Origin: a virus
Lineage: Duplodnaviria; Heunggongvirae; Uroviricota; Caudoviricetes
Direction: 5' to 3' (one strand)
IMG/VR virus record: IMGVR_UViG_2534682160_000014
Length of the DNA: 9,907 nucleotides
Below the pieces are notes generated by a model. It saw nothing but the letters and a program-made list of their open reading frames with translations, was not told where the DNA came from and made no database searches. A program made the translations under genes and the position numbers. Of this stretch, positions 1 through 9,616 are shown piece after piece; the first letter of the stretch is position 1, and every line of letters starts with the position of its first letter.

Positions 1-1242
1 ATGGCGAGAAAAACACCCCCATTAACCACAGTACAGATCAAAGCAGCCAGACCAGCAGAAAAGGAATACACCCTACAGGACGGCGGAGGGCTTTTTCTCC
101 TGATCAAACCGTCTGGATCAAAACTCTGGAGATTTTCCTACTACCGACCATCGGACAAAAAAAGAATATTGCTGAGTTTTGGATCGCTTGATGATGTTTC
201 CCTGGCTGATGCCAGAAAACGCCGTAGCGAGTACAGGGCGTTAATTCGTGCCGGAACTGACCCGCAGGACCACGAGAGGCAAAAAAGAGAGGCAGAGGCC
301 CGAAGACAAGGGAACACGTTCGAAAATGTGGCAACAGCATGGTACCAGGTGAAAATCAGCCAGAATCTGGCCCCCAATACGATTAAAGACATCTGGCGAT
401 CGCTGGAAAAATATGTATTCCCGTTCATCGGCAACACGCCAATAGACACCCTGACCGCTCGCAGGTTTGTTGAGGTGCTTACCCCCATCAAGGAACGTGG
501 CAACCTGGAAACGCTCAAGCGAGTTTTACAGCGTGTAAATGAGGTAATGGATTACGCCGCCAATAGTGGGATGATTGATGCCAATCCGGCTATGAATGTG
601 CGTAAGGCGTTCCCCTCCCCTGTAAAAAAACATATGCCAACAATCCGCCCCGAACAGCTGCCGGAGCTTATGCAGGCTTTATCAGTATCGGCAACAGAAC
701 GGCAGACCAGATTACTGATTGAATGGCAGTTACTGACCGTAACCCGTCCCGTTGAAGCATCGTCGGCACGCTGGGAAGAAATCGACATGGAGGCGCAACG
801 CTGGACCATACCCGCCGGACGCATGAAGATGCGCCGCGACCACGTTATCCCGCTTTGTGACCAGGCTATGGCAGTGCTGGAGGCTATGAAACCAATCAGC
901 CACCACCGCGATTATGTTTTCCCGAGTCTGAAAGCCCCACGGCAGCCGATGAACAGCCAGACAGCAAACGCAGCATTACGACGCATGGGGTTCGCTGGCG
1001 TGCTGGTGTCTCATGGATTACGCGCCATATTCAGCACAGCAGCGAACGAGGAAGGATTCGAGCCGGACGTAATCGAGGCGGCACTTGCCCACGTCGACAC
1101 CAACGAAGTCAGACGGGCATACAACCGGAGCAACTACATAGAAAAACGCGTGGTGCTTATGCGCTGGTGGGGCGAATTTGTCGAGGCTGCGGCGACGGGC
1201 GTAACCCTCGCCAGTGGTAAAAGGGGTATCCGAGCCGTTTAG
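1..1242 (+). CDS. int: Tyrosine site-specific integrase, P4-like family
   Basis: 413-aa ORF from the ATG at position 1 to TAG at 1240-1242. The C-terminal region carries catalytic-type motifs (HGLRAIFSTAA; AYNRSNYIEKR with the presumed nucleophile Tyr), and the N-terminal ~90 aa is basic and arm-binding-like, as in P4-type integrases. Confidence 0.93.
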   Translation: MARKTPPLTTVQIKAARPAEKEYTLQDGGGLFLLIKPSGSKLWRFSYYRPSDKKRILLSFGSLDDVSLADARKRRSEYRALIRAGTDPQDHERQKREAEARRQGNTFENVATAWYQVKISQNLAPNTIKDIWRSLEKYVFPFIGNTPIDTLTARRFVEVLTPIKERGNLETLKRVLQRVNEVMDYAANSGMIDANPAMNVRKAFPSPVKKHMPTIRPEQLPELMQALSVSATERQTRLLIEWQLLTVTRPVEASSARWEEIDMEAQRWTIPAGRMKMRRDHVIPLCDQAMAVLEAMKPISHHRDYVFPSLKAPRQPMNSQTANAALRRMGFAGVLVSHGLRAIFSTAANEEGFEPDVIEAALAHVDTNEVRRAYNRSNYIEKRVVLMRWWGEFVEAAATGVTLASGKRGIRAV

Positions 1243-1738: not shown

Positions 1739-1944
1739 ATGGAAGCAATCAAAAAAGTCATCTTTCGCCAGGAAGTAAAAAACTTATCCATATTAAGGCA
1801 GACAGCACGCTGCAAAGCATGATCAACGCCGGAGAATTCCCGCAGGGTTTTCGTGTCGGTTTGCGCCGTCGCGGATGGTATGAGGAAGACGTAATCGCAT
1901 GGATGAAAGAACGCGAACAAGAAGCGCGCGGAACGACCGCTTAA
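1739..1944 (+). pseudogene. alpA: AlpA-family (phage transcriptional regulator) gene, apparently disrupted by a 1-nt frameshift in an A6 tract, or a sequencing error at the homopolymer
   Basis: ATG at 1739 with an SD (GAGGT, 1726-1730) opens a frame reading MEAIKKVIFRQEVKN... that stops at TGA 1820-1822. The AlpA-like HTH and C-terminus (…DSTLQSMINAGEFPQGFRVGLRRRGWYEEDVIAWMKERE…) are in the -1 frame, open from 1688 to TAA 1942-1944 but with no ATG/GTG/TTG start upstream of 1819. The frames can be joined at A6 (1777-1782); one extra A gives a continuous 68-aa AlpA-like protein. Confidence 0.55.
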
Positions 1945-1969
1945 CATATATAGGGCAAATGATGAACAT

Positions 1970-1995
1970 AAAAAAAGCGGCCCCGAAATGGAGCC
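1970..1995 (-). terminator. Probable intrinsic terminator for the leftward operon ending at 2066
   Basis: On the minus strand: GGCUCC-AUUUC-GGGGCC hairpin (includes a G-U pair) followed by a U7 run (plus-strand A-run 1970-1976). Lies ~70 nt downstream of the minus-strand stop at 2066-2068. Confidence 0.4.
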
Positions 1996-2065
1996 ACCTT
2001 TCTGAACAATTAACCCGCTGCGCCGTATGTGTCAACAATCATAAGCCTGGGCATGATAACCGCGA

Positions 2066-2269
2066 TCAGGCTGGTGGGCAATTATCTTTCTTGTTGGGGC
2101 CGTATTGTGCTGCCATTTTCATCCGTTCAGAACGTGAATATTTTTTTAGAAACTCATCAAGGACAAAAGCGCATGGTGCGAATCTTTCTGATTCATGCTC
2201 GAGCGCCATATTTTCGTGCTCTCTGTTCGTTTTTTGCGATGGTGTATCGATTGATTCTTTATTGGTCAT
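2066..2269 (-). CDS. Hypothetical small protein (67 aa), second gene of leftward module B; paralog of the 2720..2947 product
   Basis: ORF MTNKES…NCPPA. The start ATG is 9 nt downstream of the conserved 44-nt element. It shares the MTN start and an internal C-A-x-x-x-x-E-x-L block with the 75-aa paralog. Confidence 0.5.
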   Translation of the reverse strand: MTNKESIDTPSQKTNREHENMALEHESERFAPCAFVLDEFLKKYSRSERMKMAAQYGPNKKDNCPPA

Positions 2270-2277
2270 TGTGTGTA

Positions 2278-2321
2278 CCTGTAAAGCAATGCGCCGTAGT
2301 ACCTCACGCCACGGCGCTGAT
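2278..2321 (-). repeat. Conserved 44-nt intergenic hairpin element, copy 1 (between the RHH stop and the small-protein start)
   Basis: mRNA sense: AUCAGCGCCGUGGCGUGAGGUACUACGGCGCAUUGCUUUACAGG. 7-bp stem GCGCCGU/ACGGCGC, 13-nt loop containing GAGGU. Matches 2956-2999 at 43 of 44 positions, with identical placement (begins 5 nt after the upstream stop, ends 9 nt before the downstream ATG). Confidence 0.7.
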
Positions 2322-2326
2322 GTTTT

Positions 2327-2500
2327 TTATCCTTTGGGTTCAATACCGCGTTGCTGTAATTCTTTTCGGAGTACTCGCTTGATCCAGGTGGCTAAAGAAG
2401 TGTCACCGTCTGCTTTCGCTGCCTCTTCAAGTTGTGCTCTGAATTCTTCTGGTAGCCGCATTTGGTATGGAGGCGATCGCTTTTTCAATGGTGTTGACAT
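2327..2500 (-). CDS. Arc/Mnt-like ribbon-helix-helix transcriptional repressor (57 aa)
   Basis: Not in the ORF track (short). Translation from ATG (complement of 2498-2500): MSTPLKKRSPPYQMRLPEEFRAQLEEAAKADGDTSLATWIKRVLRKELQQRGIEPKG. The PYQMRLPEEF beta-strand followed by two helices matches the Arc-type RHH pattern. The start codon sits inside a palindromic operator. Confidence 0.7.
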   Translation of the reverse strand: MSTPLKKRSPPYQMRLPEEFRAQLEEAAKADGDTSLATWIKRVLRKELQQRGIEPKG

Positions 2501-2546
2501 GGTAATTACCCTTAATTACTATAGTTACATGGTAATTACCATTGTA
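2494..2546. promoter_or_regulatory. Divergent promoter/operator region of module B
   Basis: Perfect 10-bp palindrome ggtaattacc at 2501-2510 and 2531-2540 (each preceded by acat), plus a partial copy taattac at 2514-2520. Plus strand: TTGACA (2494-2499) - 17 bp - TACTAT (2517-2522). Minus strand: TTGTTT (2568..2563) - 16 bp - TACAAT (2546..2541). Operators overlap both promoters and the RHH start codon. Confidence 0.6.
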
Positions 2547-2562
2547 CTTACCGTTATACAAA

Positions 2563-2609
2563 AAACAACGCCCCGCAGTGGTGGCTCACATACGGGGCGT
2601 CTAACCAAA
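2563..2609. repeat. Conserved hairpin element M2, copy 1; terminator-like on the minus strand and 5' leader on the plus strand
   Basis: Outer stem cgccccg (2569-2575) / cggggcg (2593-2599), inner stem gtg/cac, variable apical loop. On the minus strand it is followed by UUGUUUUUUGU. The paralogous copy at 3303-3349 has identical stems and a different apical loop. Confidence 0.6.
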
Positions 2610-2680
2610 CCATTAATTGAGGTAACGATTATGGCTATAAAAGAGCATAGCTTACTCTTTATACACACACAAACGCCCCG

Positions 2681-2700
2681 GAAACGGAATAATCCGTTTC
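2681..2700. terminator. Hairpin (8-bp stem gaaacgga / tccgtttc, loop ATAA) just downstream of the 2720..2947 minus-strand gene; possible terminator or attenuator
   Basis: Perfect inverted repeat seen directly. U/G-rich sequence follows on the minus strand and a T-rich stretch on the plus strand. Function not resolved. Confidence 0.35.
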
Positions 2701-2719
2701 ATAGTTCGGTTTTGTGTAC

Positions 2720-2947
2720 TCATCCTGGCGGGCGATTCTTACGGGACTTTAGCCGCCGTGGGCAGCTTGCTAAAAATGCCTCCAACGCGAATAGTCCAGG
2801 TTTCATTTCTATCGGTATTAGTTGGATATTCAGAGGATTAGCCAGTTCGGCTTCAAGGCGAGCACAGGTTTCTAACTGCCTTTGCCGAATGATTTCATCT
2901 TCTTGCGTCTGCGTGTCTTGTATTGGTGATAGTGTGTTGTTGGTCAT
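2720..2947 (-). CDS. Hypothetical small protein (75 aa), second gene of leftward module A; paralog of the 2066..2269 product
   Basis: ORF MTNNTLSPIQ…; the ATG is 9 nt downstream of the conserved 44-nt element copy 2. Confidence 0.5.
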   Translation of the reverse strand: MTNNTLSPIQDTQTQEDEIIRQRQLETCARLEAELANPLNIQLIPIEMKPGLFALEAFLASCPRRLKSRKNRPPG

Positions 2948-2955
2948 GGTACTGC

Positions 2956-2999
2956 CCTGTAAAGCAATGCGCCGTAGTACCTCACACCACGGCGCTGAT
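2956..2999 (-). repeat. Conserved 44-nt intergenic hairpin element, copy 2
   Basis: Differs from copy 1 at a single loop position (GGUGUGAGG vs GGCGUGAGG in mRNA sense). Same spacing to the flanking stop and start codons. Confidence 0.7.
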
Positions 3000-3004
3000 A
3001 GTGA

Positions 3005-3184
3005 TTATTCTGATTCTTTGGCCTTGCGGCGCTGGCGGCGTTTGATCTCGCCTTTTGCTGCCGTAACTAGAAATCCGGCGGTACTTTCGCCAGGTTCTTT
3101 AAGTTGCTCAATATCGGTCATTACCTCATGCGGGATTCTGACCGTTGTCATTTGTGATTTTGCGTTCTTTGCACCTGTTGCCAT
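3005..3184 (-). CDS. Ribbon-helix-helix-like small DNA-binding protein (59 aa), first gene of leftward module A
   Basis: ATG (complement of 3182-3184) preceded by SD AGGAGAA. Translation MATGAKNAKSQMTTVRIPHEVMTDIEQLKEPGESTAGFLVTAAKGEIKRRQRRKAKESE has a beta-strand (TVRIP) plus two-helix pattern and a basic tail. The 220-aa track ORF 3005..3667 is a spurious upstream extension. Confidence 0.6.
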   Translation of the reverse strand: MATGAKNAKSQMTTVRIPHEVMTDIEQLKEPGESTAGFLVTAAKGEIKRRQRRKAKESE

Positions 3185-3204
3185 TTCTGGTTCTCCTGAT
3201 AATC

Positions 3205-3297
3205 GGTGTATTTCAGTATACGCAAAAAAAAAGATAAAAAAAGTCTTGCGGTGTATTTCACTTGAATGTAGATTTAAAAATGAAGGTGAAATACACC
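3205..3297. promoter_or_regulatory. Divergent promoter/operator region of module A
   Basis: ggtgtatttca at 3205-3215; ggtgtatttcac at 3250-3261 with its perfect inverted partner gtgaaatacacc at 3286-3297 (24-bp spacer). Plus strand: TTGCGG (3246-3251) - 17 bp - TAGATT (3269-3274). The operator sequence is different from module B. Confidence 0.55.
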
Positions 3298-3302
3298 TAA
3301 AA

Positions 3303-3349
3303 CAACAACGCCCCGCAGTGATGGGAACACATACGGGGCGTCTAACCAA
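3303..3349. repeat. Conserved hairpin element M2, copy 2
   Basis: cgccccg (3309-3315) / cggggcg (3334-3340) with inner gtg/cac. T-rich on the minus-strand 3' side. Followed on the plus strand by an SD (GAGGAG) and the ATG at 3371. Confidence 0.6.
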
Positions 3350-3370
3350 CAACGTAAACGAGGAGCCGTT

Positions 3371-3571
3371 ATGGTTGCCGTAAATCATACCCCACACCTT
3401 GTACACACACAAACTGCCTTTGTGTGGCGTTTTCTGGCACTGAGTGCCGGAGAATCTCAAATCATCCACGTAACCGCCTGGACGGAACGCGAAGCGCGTA
3501 ACCGTTGCCCGTCCGGTTGTGTTGCTGTATTTGCCGCCCGTATTCGCCAGGGGGAAACCTATGCACAATAA
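3371..3571 (+). CDS. Possible leader ORF (66 aa) at the head of the rightward operon
   Basis: ATG with a good SD. The N-terminus MVAVNHTPHLVHTQT parallels MAIKEHSLLFIHTQT at the equivalent site in module B (ATG 2631). The rest has no recognisable features and overlaps the next gene's start. Coding status uncertain. Confidence 0.3.
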   Translation: MVAVNHTPHLVHTQTAFVWRFLALSAGESQIIHVTAWTEREARNRCPSGCVAVFAARIRQGETYAQ

Positions 3572-6828: not shown

Positions 6829-6851
6829 GCCGGAGAAAATCCGGCTTTTTT
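6829..6851 (+). terminator. Rho-independent terminator after ssb
   Basis: gccgg-agaaaat-ccggc hairpin followed by T6 (6846-6851). Confidence 0.8.
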
Positions 6852-6856
6852 GTAGG

Positions 6857-6926
6857 TACTCCTGGTGGGGGTGGCCTGTCCACGGGGCGGGAGGGCGCGG
6901 AAAAAGGCGCATTTTTTGATTTTTAT
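6857..6926 (+). repeat. Conserved G-rich repeat R, copy 1 (immediately after the terminator)
   Basis: tactcctggtgggggtggcctgtccacggggcgggagggcgcggaaaaaggcgcattttttgatttttat. About 85% identical over ~65 bp to 9393-9460, at the same distance from the preceding stop codon. Confidence 0.7.
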
Positions 6927-7030
6927 GGCACCATCACCACCACTATAAGCTATTGATATATTGAGAAATAAAAATTTTTAGTGTCGGATCAGGTTGTTTT
7001 TGTTCATCGCTGGAACGTTCCCGAAAACAT

Positions 7031-7086
7031 TTACAAAAAAACAGGCGCAAAAAAAGCGCCCCCGATTGCTGTTACCGGAGGCGCTT
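7031..7086. terminator. Terminator- or attenuator-like alternative hairpins
   Basis: ggcgc-A7-gcgcc hairpin (7044-7060) with a U-run on the minus-strand side (7031-7043). The same gcgcc segment can instead pair with ggcgct (7079-7084), which is followed by TTTT on the plus strand. Confidence 0.3.
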
Positions 7087-7279
7087 TTACACGACAAAGG
7101 AGTTTTTATCGCCAGGATGACGAGTCTTAATATTGCTTCAATGGCAAAAATGCGTCAATGGCTTTGCCTCTCTGAGAATAATCAGAAAAAACATAATCTG
7201 ATTTTCAGGTAGAAAATGATTTATCTATTACTTTTATCGATCAATAATGATGCCCGTTAATCAAAACGGAGGCGGATTT

Positions 7280-9365: not shown

Positions 9366-9387
9366 GGCGGCACCAGCCGCCTTTTTT
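9366..9387 (+). terminator. Rho-independent terminator after the capsid gene
   Basis: ggcggc-acca-gccgcc hairpin followed by T6 (9382-9387). Confidence 0.8.
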
Positions 9388-9392
9388 GCGGG

Positions 9393-9460
9393 TCCTCCTG
9401 GTGGGGTGGGCCTGAACACGGGGCGGGCGGCGCGGAAAAAAGCGCATTTTTGTGATTTTA
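9393..9460 (+). repeat. Conserved G-rich repeat R, copy 2
   Basis: tcctcctggtggggtgggcctgaacacggggcgggcggcgcggaaaaaagcgcatttttgtgatttta; followed by a (CAT)4 run at 9466-9477. Confidence 0.7.
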
Positions 9461-9616
9461 TCGTCATCATCATCATGTGTGTAACCTGTTGTTTTTAATG
9501 TGGTTGATGCAAAAAAGATGATGATTGCGGTTAATTTTTGTTCGACATCTTTTAGCGTGACAGATTCTTTACAAAAAATCTGAGCTTGTTTTCTTCACCA
9601 GCGCGATGGGGGCACA

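Follow-up and report, generated by a model that had tools for sequence, protein, structure and literature searches.

Exchangeable ribbon-helix-helix cassettes as candidate immunity determinants at the alpA/icd junction of Enterobacterales phage satellites, and the open frame that crosses them

A 9,907-nucleotide (nt) stretch of viral DNA (Caudoviricetes; IMG/VR record IMGVR_UViG_2534682160_000014; in the following called the window) carries two adjacent leftward modules between an alpA-like and an icd-like gene. Each module comprises a gene for a small ribbon-helix-helix (RHH) protein, a conserved 44-nt hairpin (hp44), a small open reading frame (ORF), a control region with inverted-repeat operators, and a second conserved hairpin named M2. 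In this study, we compared both modules with their relatives and conclude, with a probability of roughly 55%, that they are two different exchangeable immunity cassettes at the alpA/icd junction of Enterobacterales satellites, which would act by the mechanism proposed below. The anatomy and homology of the modules, the covariation of RHH alleles with operators, the strand asymmetry of M2, and the depletion of stop codons on the strand opposite the cassettes were computed directly. On this opposite strand, a single frame of 474 codons, here called the bridge ORF, crosses both modules.

Anatomy of the two modules

All four minus-strand ORFs named in an earlier note on this DNA are present. In module A these are RHH-A (2327..2500; 57 amino acids (aa), tail ..RGIEPKG), a putative type I Arc/Mnt-like repressor, and small ORF A (2066..2269; 67 aa, type A1, motif RFAPCAFVLDEFLKKY). 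In module B they are RHH-B (3005..3184; 59 aa, tail ..RRQRRKAKESE), a type II protein of the YlcI/YnfO family, and small ORF B (2720..2947; 75 aa, type B1, motif LFALEAFL...NRPPG). The 44-nt hairpin said to be shared by both modules was recovered as the 98% identical core of a 75-nt direct repeat (2259-2333 / 2937-3011; 83% identity). Here, hp44-A (2279..2322, minus strand; hairpin 2291-2317) lies between the RHH-A stop and the start of small ORF A, and hp44-B (2956..2999, minus strand) forms a hairpin at 2969-2995 with 12 pairs including G·U on the minus strand. The M2 repeat also exists (2560-2608 / 3300-3349, including 22 identical bases), and the conserved block around it was found to hold in addition the ribosome-binding site of icd and its first ~15 codons, which had gone unnoticed. 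In module A this block appears as a truncated icd start, icd' (2601..2675, plus strand), with a TCTAACCA box, the Shine-Dalgarno (SD) sequence GAGG, an ATG at 2631 and ~15 conserved codons, in frame with the bridge ORF. The orientation of the modules is the reverse of the one reported earlier: module B (2720-3349), not module A, adjoins the icd-like gene (3371) and the replication operon, and the rightward promoter of module A faces icd' and then module B.

The inverted-repeat operators were confirmed as perfect 12-nt pairs at 2499-2510/2531-2542 (ATGGTAATTACC) and 3250-3261/3286-3297 (GGTGTATTTCAC); by our own estimate, chance would yield ~0.007 perfect 12-nt inverted repeats within 40 nt per 2.8 kb. 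Control region A (2494..2553) contains the operators ATGGTAATTACC (2499-2510) and GGTAATTACCAT (2531-2542) and a degenerate third copy (2541-2553). A consensus scan predicted a rightward promoter in this region (TTGACA 2494-2499, 17 nt, TACTAT 2517-2522), which overlaps an operator and is a strong prediction with 10/12 consensus positions matched; the putative leftward -10 (TACAAT, 2549-2544) was only read from the sequence. Control region B (3204..3297), the layout of which is common to all type II cassettes, has the operators O1 (3250-3261), O2 (3286-3297) and O3 (GGTGTATTTCA, 3205-3215). O3 adjoins the putative leftward -10 TATACT (3220-3215) with an A-tract next to it, and a rightward promoter, again read by inspection, would consist of the -35 TTGCGG (3245-3250), 17 nt and the -10 TAGATT (3268-3273).

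M2 is placed between the control region and the icd SD. M2-A (2560..2600, minus strand) has its hairpin at 2568-2600, and its U-run corresponds to the plus-strand A-run 2560-2567; the hairpin of M2-B (3299..3340, minus strand) lies at 3307-3340. Of 30 sequence variants, 28 fold more stably as minus-strand than as plus-strand RNA, the difference reaching 12 kcal/mol; G·U pairs occur on the minus strand only and correspond to C·A mismatches on the plus strand. All 11 consensus pairs are kept, three of them with compensatory changes, and a U-rich tail follows. Judged by this fold, M2 is a predicted strand-specific leftward intrinsic terminator. The same asymmetry, a C·A mismatch in the plus-strand stem, was found in the leftward intrinsic terminator predicted for the operon of module A (1970..1995, minus strand; GGCUCC-AUUUC-GGGGCC then U7), whose stem-loop is all that a partial Rfam match to Atu_C8 covers. 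Owing to this asymmetry, both hairpins would stop leftward transcripts and would be weak for rightward ones.

M2-B might also end a short RNA of its own. A -10-like TATGAT (3389-3384) within icd codons 5-6 could start a cis-antisense RNA of ~80 nt (3296..3378, minus strand) that would overlie the icd ATG and SD before ending at M2-B, in the manner of the P22 sar RNA. In most variants TATGAT or TATGCT lies 9-15 nt inside icd; the motif is degenerate in two loci (L084 and L088) of the comparative sample described below. This RNA is put forward tentatively, at somewhat less than even odds.

Repressor alleles, operators and arrays

For comparison, loci were collected with an exact 18-mer of hp44, which retrieved 59 loci from IMG/VR; with the window and seven loci from E. 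coli genomes added, the sample comprised 85 cassettes in 67 loci. The cassette was found in Escherichia coli, Shigella, Klebsiella, Yersinia, and Edwardsiella. Among 5,426 complete E. coli genomes, hp44 is present in 168, with 301 copies in total and up to six per genome. The 18-mer is too short for the set of 185,579 species representatives, where 15 of 16 matches were chance hits in unrelated metagenome-assembled genomes and only the one in Shigella flexneri was real.

Profile searches bore out the earlier assignment of both proteins to the RHH fold. RHH-B scores 62.1 bits against the YlcI/YnfO family (NCBIfam NF041551; curated cut-off 30), and RHH-A matches PHROG 228 'Arc-like repressor' (E 4.9e-7) and, below the cut-off, Pfam Arc (E 0.0076). 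Type I and type II proteins are homologous in a profile-profile comparison (hhalign; probability 88%, E 3e-6), with 28% pairwise identity between RHH-A and RHH-B, and the type I profile made from RHH-A relatives aligns weakly to the strand and helix A of P22 Mnt (1mnt, E 0.28). In an AlphaFold model of RHH-B (predicted local distance difference test score 82), residues 1-18 are extended, apart from a short three-residue helical turn, and helices span residues 19-28 and 35-58. On these profile data, both proteins can be assigned to the Arc/MetJ (ribbon-helix-helix) superfamily. RHH proteins of the cassettes have 57-106 aa; the type II proteins occur in short and long forms, and their N-terminal strand 'KSQxxxxR[IVF]PH[ED]V' is hypervariable. 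The family spans Enterobacterales, and the sources name members from further genera. Using tblastn, no match to RHH-B was obtained among 50,697 phage records at E up to 1e-3, and the idea of a repressor titrated by YlcI homologues from helper phages was therefore dropped. To our knowledge, no function has been described for the YlcI/YnfO family.

The strongest support for a repressor function comes from the operators. Across the whole sample, a given RHH beta-strand allele always occurs with an operator core of its own, repeated at three fixed places on conserved -35 and -10 elements: abutting the leftward -10 (TATACT), between the rightward -35 (CTTGAC-like) and -10, and just downstream. Several strand/operator pairs are common to different genera, namely SQQLNARFPHDV with GTGCGATTCAC in E. 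coli and Klebsiella, SKQISIRIPHD with TGTGATTCA in E. coli and Yersinia, and SQSLTARIPHDV with TGTAAG(A/C)CA in E. coli and Edwardsiella. Because strand alleles and operators covary, we infer that the RHH proteins bind these operators, repress the adjacent rightward promoter, and autoregulate. The same comparison favors the proposal that the two RHH proteins of the window differ in operator specificity. As a separate observation, the control region of the second module of L055 has a 23-nt unit with the operator CTGTGCGCACA in three copies versus two in relatives; the number of operator copies therefore varies.

The two modules had been interpreted as a tandem duplication. They are better described as a combinatorial array of exchangeable cassettes, of which an island holds one to three: 50 loci contain one cassette, 16 contain two and one (L007) contains three, and among the 17 arrays 14 allele combinations occur, in which the same allele is never repeated. 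Co-occurrence of two modules, which had been proposed as a check, was thus observed in 17/67 loci, but the allele pair of the window itself (type I 'KKRSPPYQMRLPEEF' and type II 'KSQMTTVRIPHEV') is unique in the sample. Module A itself also occurs in E. coli O111:H- 11128 (NC_013364). With respect to the parts that are exchanged, 17 copies of hp44 from the window and from seven loci of E. coli are 97-100% identical, in contrast to the flanking genes, which differ. Small-ORF types reassort freely with RHH alleles, and one RHH allele was found with four small-ORF types. Because of this free combination, hp44 and the M2/icd block can be regarded as recombination boundaries of the cassettes. Internal cassettes always carry a truncated icd start and a B1 small ORF, and this constant junction points to array formation by recombination at conserved blocks. 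In four single-cassette loci from IMG/VR (L012, L014, L021, L045), we noted an orphan icd' block, in some cases with M2, between alpA and the small ORF and without an RHH gene. These blocks look like remnants of a deleted first cassette, so that arrays seem both to grow and to shrink.

Recombination of this kind also underlies a rival explanation, by which the tandem arrangement serves no purpose and is a scar left at the hp44 and M2/icd blocks when co-resident islands recombined unequally or illegitimately, only cassette B controls the island and module A is a passenger. The truncated icd start after module A, the invariable junction of internal cassettes with their B1 small ORF, and the single cassette in most loci are compatible with a scar; the hp44 copies within a genome could serve as recombination partners, and the conserved flanks as boundaries. 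Set against this, ORFs and operators are intact in every cassette of the 17 arrays, the antisense frame is open in all but two cassettes, and module A keeps its strong predicted rightward promoter. Moreover, the 14 combinations without a pair of identical alleles indicate that arrays formed repeatedly and persisted. A mere scar is therefore considered unlikely, and we retain exchangeable cassettes as the preferred explanation.

The small proteins had been called paralogous. No BLASTP similarity between them was detected; what remains of the claim is a weak motif of 18 columns (F-A-x-x-x-F-x-L-[DE]-x-F-L), the only part that the two family profiles share (hhalign probability 68%). Their common N-terminal 'MTN' falls inside the conserved DNA block. 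Small protein A matches PHROG 21027 (unknown function, E 2.5e-12), and the homologues of small protein B are all E. coli hypothetical proteins, except for one partial match to a protein named AlpA-family. Searches of both proteins gave no significant Pfam, NCBIfam or PADLOC match and no toxin family. This result bears on the possibility that the cassettes are type II toxin-antitoxin (TA) modules for island maintenance or abortive infection and not for control of the replication operon, with the RHH protein as antitoxin and the small protein as toxin. Such modules would account for the gene order, with RHH first and the small ORF second, for palindromic operators in the cassette's own promoter and for the several copies per genome, in which hp44 occurs up to six times; antitoxins often contain RHH domains, and the second-best fold match of RHH-B is the RHH domain of PrpA (E>1). 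The earlier note had named an ordinary antitoxin with a matching known toxin as the refuting case, and no known toxin partner was found when looked for. The free reassortment of small-ORF types leaves no co-adapted pair, the short RHH proteins have just a ~10-residue basic tail beyond the fold and no toxin-binding domain, and the operators overlap the promoter of the icd operon. Neither hp44 nor the small ORF is present in the cassettes of Klebsiella, Yersinia, and Edwardsiella, which nevertheless keep RHH, operators, M2, and icd. Small proteins that match no known family and are absent from the cassettes of three genera therefore argue against a TA pair, which we judge very improbable.

The hairpin hp44 is GC-rich in its stem and usually more stable on the minus strand. 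Loop-loop pairing of hp44 with M2 or with the icd ribosome-binding site was considered and dropped, since inspection by eye revealed complementary matches of merely 4-5 nt.

The open frame antisense to the cassettes

All four minus-strand genes lie in one register and the opposite strand is one open frame, a feature not noticed in the earlier note. The bridge ORF (1959..3383, plus strand) is antisense to both modules; it starts with an SD-like AGGG and ATGATG 15 nt past the alpA stop and ends with a TAA 10 nt after the icd ATG (ATGGTTGCCGTAA). In the bridge frame the plus strand is free of stops from 1884 to 3383, against 23 and 43 stops in the two remaining plus frames. The 636 nt of non-coding DNA contain no stop in this frame versus 15 and 25 in the others, and shuffled sequences contained 11.8 on average and never 0 in 5000 trials. 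Across the sample, 83/85 cassettes have a plus-strand open frame that covers their small ORF as well as their RHH gene. In 29 non-redundant genes (<80% identity, 2004 codons), only one antisense stop was counted, compared with 20 after synonymous reshuffling (minimum 8 in 1000 trials), and ~58 stops per 2004 codons would be expected at the rate of the window's background genes in this phase.

The ends of the frame are also placed in a regular manner. In at least seven left flanks unrelated to one another, an SD and ATG open it a few to ~60 bases past the preceding gene's stop, and its starts include the CATGTGTAA overlap and TAAGGAG-N8-ATG. In all but five of the icd-proximal cassettes, it is in frame with icd, ends 13 nt into icd, or stops 4-37 nt short of the icd start codon. 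The relatives in Klebsiella, Yersinia, and Edwardsiella have an antisense frame of 171-344 codons over the RHH gene and the control region, the other frames having 11-88 codons. This frame is in frame with icd in 5/6 loci, stops ~15 nt before the next gene in Klebsiella L085, and starts at the stop of the upstream gene, with an ATGA overlap in L085 and TAAttATG in L086. As a side observation, genes for AntA and/or Bro-N (antirepressor-like) domains separate alpA from the RHH cassette in the loci L084-L089; they share the strand of alpA and lie directly upstream of the bridge frame.

Family matches and operator covariation led us to reject the view that only the long plus-strand ORF is a gene and that the minus-strand ORFs are spurious. 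A different matter is whether the plus-strand frame is a genuine overlapping gene in antisense for a functional long protein, often an N-terminally extended Icd-like protein. Many relatives, including those in Klebsiella, Yersinia, and Edwardsiella, have it fused in frame to icd. The frame is matched by 1,189 protein clusters, many of which are named 'Icd-like protein' and have 460-604 aa; such annotations as 'host cell division inhibitor Icd-like' (NCBI, others; clusters P0015-P0132) represent the bridge frame fused to an Icd-like part of ~65 aa. PHROG 29966, with 188 positions, likewise contains the Icd part only at its C-terminus (last 62 positions). The predicted protein sequence is rich in Cys, Ser and Arg, has no family match and changes wholly with each RHH allele, and the connection to icd is variable (in frame, 13-nt overlap, or stop 4-37 nt upstream). 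In addition, since the frame contains the rightward promoter and the icd SD, the short Icd would be made independently. We regard a functional long protein as distinctly improbable; the bridge frame also explains a recurrent annotation artefact of 460-604 aa 'Icd-like' proteins.

The open frame could also be an unselected by-product of amino-acid composition and shared ancestry. Several data count in favor of this and hence against selection. As a negative control, the K-12 gene ylcI, located in a lambdoid context, is also stop-free in the same antisense phase over 65 codons. The per-gene probability of zero stops after synonymous shuffling is 0.2-0.9 and often 0.4-0.9, and RHH coding sequences are intrinsically stop-poor in this phase. 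The cassettes are homologous and related by descent, so that they are not independent samples and the statistics overstate independence. Two of the 85 cassettes were not scored as spanned by the open frame, and an early stop, 73-134 nt ahead of the icd or icd' ATG, ends it in five icd-proximal cassettes and in one internal one. Because K-12 ylcI is stop-free as well, the RHH coding part alone is weak evidence, and weight was put on the non-coding parts, the total under synonymous shuffling, and the placement of start and stop. Composition does not account for the stop-free promoter, operator and terminator DNA (0 stops versus 11.8 expected in 636 nt), for the single register of all genes, or for the one stop versus 20 expected over 29 genes. 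The frame has an SD and ATG beside the upstream stop in unrelated left flanks and ends at the icd start, and the open stretch of K-12 ylcI ends <50 nt from the gene. A by-product is thus considered highly improbable, and the open frame is very probably under selection. Concerning its purpose, translation of rightward transcripts across the inverted cassettes is our favored explanation, with a chance just short of even.

Island context, proposed mechanism and known systems

The window begins with a tyrosine integrase gene (1..1242). The alpA-like helix-turn-helix gene (1739..1944, plus strand) is the upstream neighbor of the array and was recognized by homology to WP_000387403.1 (L001 2939..3145) and by a PHROG match 'excisionase and transcriptional regulator'. 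In the window this gene is frameshifted, with a run of A6 at 1782-1787 versus A7 in E. coli relatives: the frame is broken after codon 14, with a stop near 1820, and the C-terminal part is kept only as a 41-aa ORF (1819..1944). The A6 run could reflect a pseudogene, a homopolymer sequencing error, or slippage. The icd-like gene (3371..3571, plus strand; NCBIfam NF033153, E 7e-18) is the first gene of the rightward early/replication operon and is homologous to the P4 ORF that comes after the CI RNA. It is followed, in this order, by several small ORFs, a DUF4222 protein, an AAA_25 RepA-type helicase, SSB, a ClpP-type protease, and the major capsid protein. Close E. coli relatives with the layout of the window are integrated at tRNA-Pro beside yejM. 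From this gene content (integrase, alpA-like, AAA_25 RepA-type helicase, SSB, ClpP-type protease, major capsid protein), the window appears to be a phage-satellite island resembling the capsid-forming phage-inducible chromosomal islands (PICIs), the cfPICIs; portal, terminase and the right end of the island fall beyond the window.

Further features were observed in the right part of the window. A 115-nt direct repeat (6841-6955 / 9377-9491; 71% ungapped identity) is located downstream of SSB and of the capsid gene; in a gapped alignment of 151-base stretches around both copies, the mean column identity is 83%. Each copy comprises a terminator hairpin with T-run, a conserved G-rich segment (CTCCTGGTGGGG..GGCCTG..CACGGGGCGGG), and a second GCGC hairpin with T-run. 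The non-coding segment 9384-9584 after the capsid gene is 88-90% identical to unannotated DNA of phages converting to Shiga toxin (Stx) 1 or 2 production, and may be a shared cos or packaging region that ties the island to Stx-phage helpers. When the whole window was scanned against Rfam at E up to 1, the 115-nt repeat had no match and just two sub-threshold chance matches were obtained, Atu_C8 and ctRNA_p42d. The latter (7047-7088, minus strand; 23 bits, E 0.27) is a GC hairpin followed by a U-run and is probably a mere terminator.

In the mechanism we propose, the leftward operon of each cassette would encode an RHH dimer, the hp44 hairpin and the small protein. The RHH dimer would bind three allele-specific operator copies, two of which bracket the -35/-10 region and the start of the rightward promoter, and would thereby silence the icd-like/replication operon; the third copy abuts the RHH gene's own leftward -10 and would serve autoregulation. 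M2, as a leftward-only terminator, would insulate the control region and probably end the short antisense RNA over the icd ribosome-binding site. In this way the cassette would replace the CI-RNA immunity elements of P4. Two cassettes in series would provide two independently repressed rightward promoters of different specificity, and transcripts from that of module A would have to read through module B. Such a pair of locks possibly confers dual immunity or receives two helper inputs; alternatively, arrays merely persist.

Since the repressor cassettes are inverted between alpA and the operon that AlpA must activate, the rightward transcript runs antisense through 0.7-2 kb. Translation of the bridge ORF could shield RNA initiated at alpA or module A from Rho, could melt hp44 and M2, which are hairpins weak on this strand, and could deliver ribosomes to icd. 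Convergent transcription and antisense RNA might then shut off repressor synthesis and lead to commitment in the manner of an excludon, i.e. a long transcript that is antisense to one gene set and mRNA for an adjacent, oppositely acting operon. More speculatively, these elements may amount to an unrecognised master-repressor system, in which hypervariable, stackable Arc/Mnt cassettes are crossed by an obligatorily translated bridge ORF and this translated excludon is the commitment switch of satellite induction; we consider this wider proposal doubtful.

Several results weigh against the cassette model and its mechanism. The promoters are consensus-level predictions, and the scan gave fewer promoter-like sites than shuffled sequences. 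RHH-A stays below the YlcI/YnfO cut-off (20.1 bits versus 30) and is not a member of the family by that criterion. A Foldseek search of the PDB with the RHH-B model, a monomer model of an obligate dimer and thus a weak query, gave nothing with E<1, the best matches being 1xrx_A (N-terminal domain chain) and 7ycv_B (RHH domain of PrpA). In type I cassettes, hp44 has a T-run next to it on the plus strand and could terminate rightward transcripts, and the model does not account for hp44 and the small proteins. With GC skew as a proxy for Rho utilization (rut) sites, no obvious C-rich rut region was detected. Finally, with its alpA gene frameshifted, this particular island may be defective.

The RHH cassette is a concrete and testable candidate for the global repressor that Gram-negative PICIs may have, since its RHH protein is small and its allele-matched operators lie directly on the replication-operon promoter. 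The diversity of alleles and their stacking in arrays would account for immunity of one satellite against another and, possibly, for the specificity towards helpers. Open for hundreds of codons opposite genes, promoters, and terminators, the bridge frame is furthermore a natural case of unusual clarity in which to ask whether translation is selected for nothing but the passage of transcription through hostile sequence.

For Gram-negative PICIs, it has been described as unclear whether they have a global repressor, and the differing induction strategies of Gram-positive and Gram-negative islands have been called 'a mystery' (Fillol-Salom et al. 2018, PMC6092414). In E. coli PICIs, AlpA activates the downstream genes, and helper phages switch alpA on (PMC6092414). 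The cassettes resemble the Stl (Rpr) repressors of the Staphylococcus aureus pathogenicity islands (SaPIs) and other Gram-positive PICIs, with their divergent stl-str promoters, in that a repressor gene is divergent from the satellite excision/replication operon and its allelic diversity is expected to match different helper-phage inducers (PMC6092414). In contrast, Stl is a large helix-turn-helix protein of unrelated fold, whereas the cassette RHH proteins are small and their islands also carry alpA. We know of no antirepressor for the RHH cassettes.

In P4, the order is vis (the alpA homologue), PLE, an isrK/seqA-like element, the C4-family CI RNA, the icd-like ORF, epsilon, and alpha, and the window follows it in position and order, from alpA via an immunity determinant to the icd-like ORF and the replication genes. 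The determinant differs, being an inverted protein-repressor cassette instead of a CI RNA: the Rfam families C4 (RF01695), isrK (RF01394), and c4-a1b1 (RF03163) had no match in the window at E up to 1, while P4 as positive control scored 74.9, 60.8 and 44.1 bits, respectively. With P4 gene order and no C4 or isrK match, the window thus has the RHH cassette in the place where a P4-like early operon carries its immunity determinant. In P4, immunity depends on the CI RNA and acts by premature termination of transcription (PMC4825925); as this takes place in the corresponding leader, translation-dependent read-through is plausible in the window.

The YlcI/YnfO (DUF3950) proteins of lambdoid prophages include RHH-B as a member and have a similar size and the N-terminal 'R-[IF]-P' strand in common with it, but K-12 ylcI adjoins the packaging gene nohD and not an alpA/icd junction. 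A further relative in design is the immI region of P22, which comprises the RHH repressors Mnt and Arc, the divergent promoters Pant and Pmnt, and the sar antisense RNA. There too, a small Arc/Mnt-type RHH gene is divergent from the operon that it controls, operators lie over the promoter of that operon, and a short leftward RNA, which is only predicted in the window, ends at a hairpin opposite the ribosome-binding site of the first gene. P22 immI differs in controlling the antirepressor ant, whereas the first gene in the window is icd-like and replication genes follow. The cassettes also differ from immI in their many specificity alleles with matched operators, their arrays of one to three, the small ORF and hp44 downstream, and the long antisense frame.

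With the excludon and with isrK-orf45-anrP of Gifsy-1, the bridge ORF would share an ORF valued for being translated rather than for its amino-acid sequence and the coupling to a downstream gene; in Gifsy-1, the upstream ORF has conserved nucleotides and variable amino acids and drives the downstream gene by translational coupling (PMC4825925). The bridge ORF differs from both in that the antisense segment itself is kept as an open frame of 170-765 codons across coding and non-coding DNA. Our literature searches found no description of the RHH cassette layout for PICIs or P4-like satellites, in agreement with the earlier note. Taken together, the cassette is a probable Arc/Mnt-type divergent repressor switch at a site where none has been described, combined with a conserved antisense open frame.

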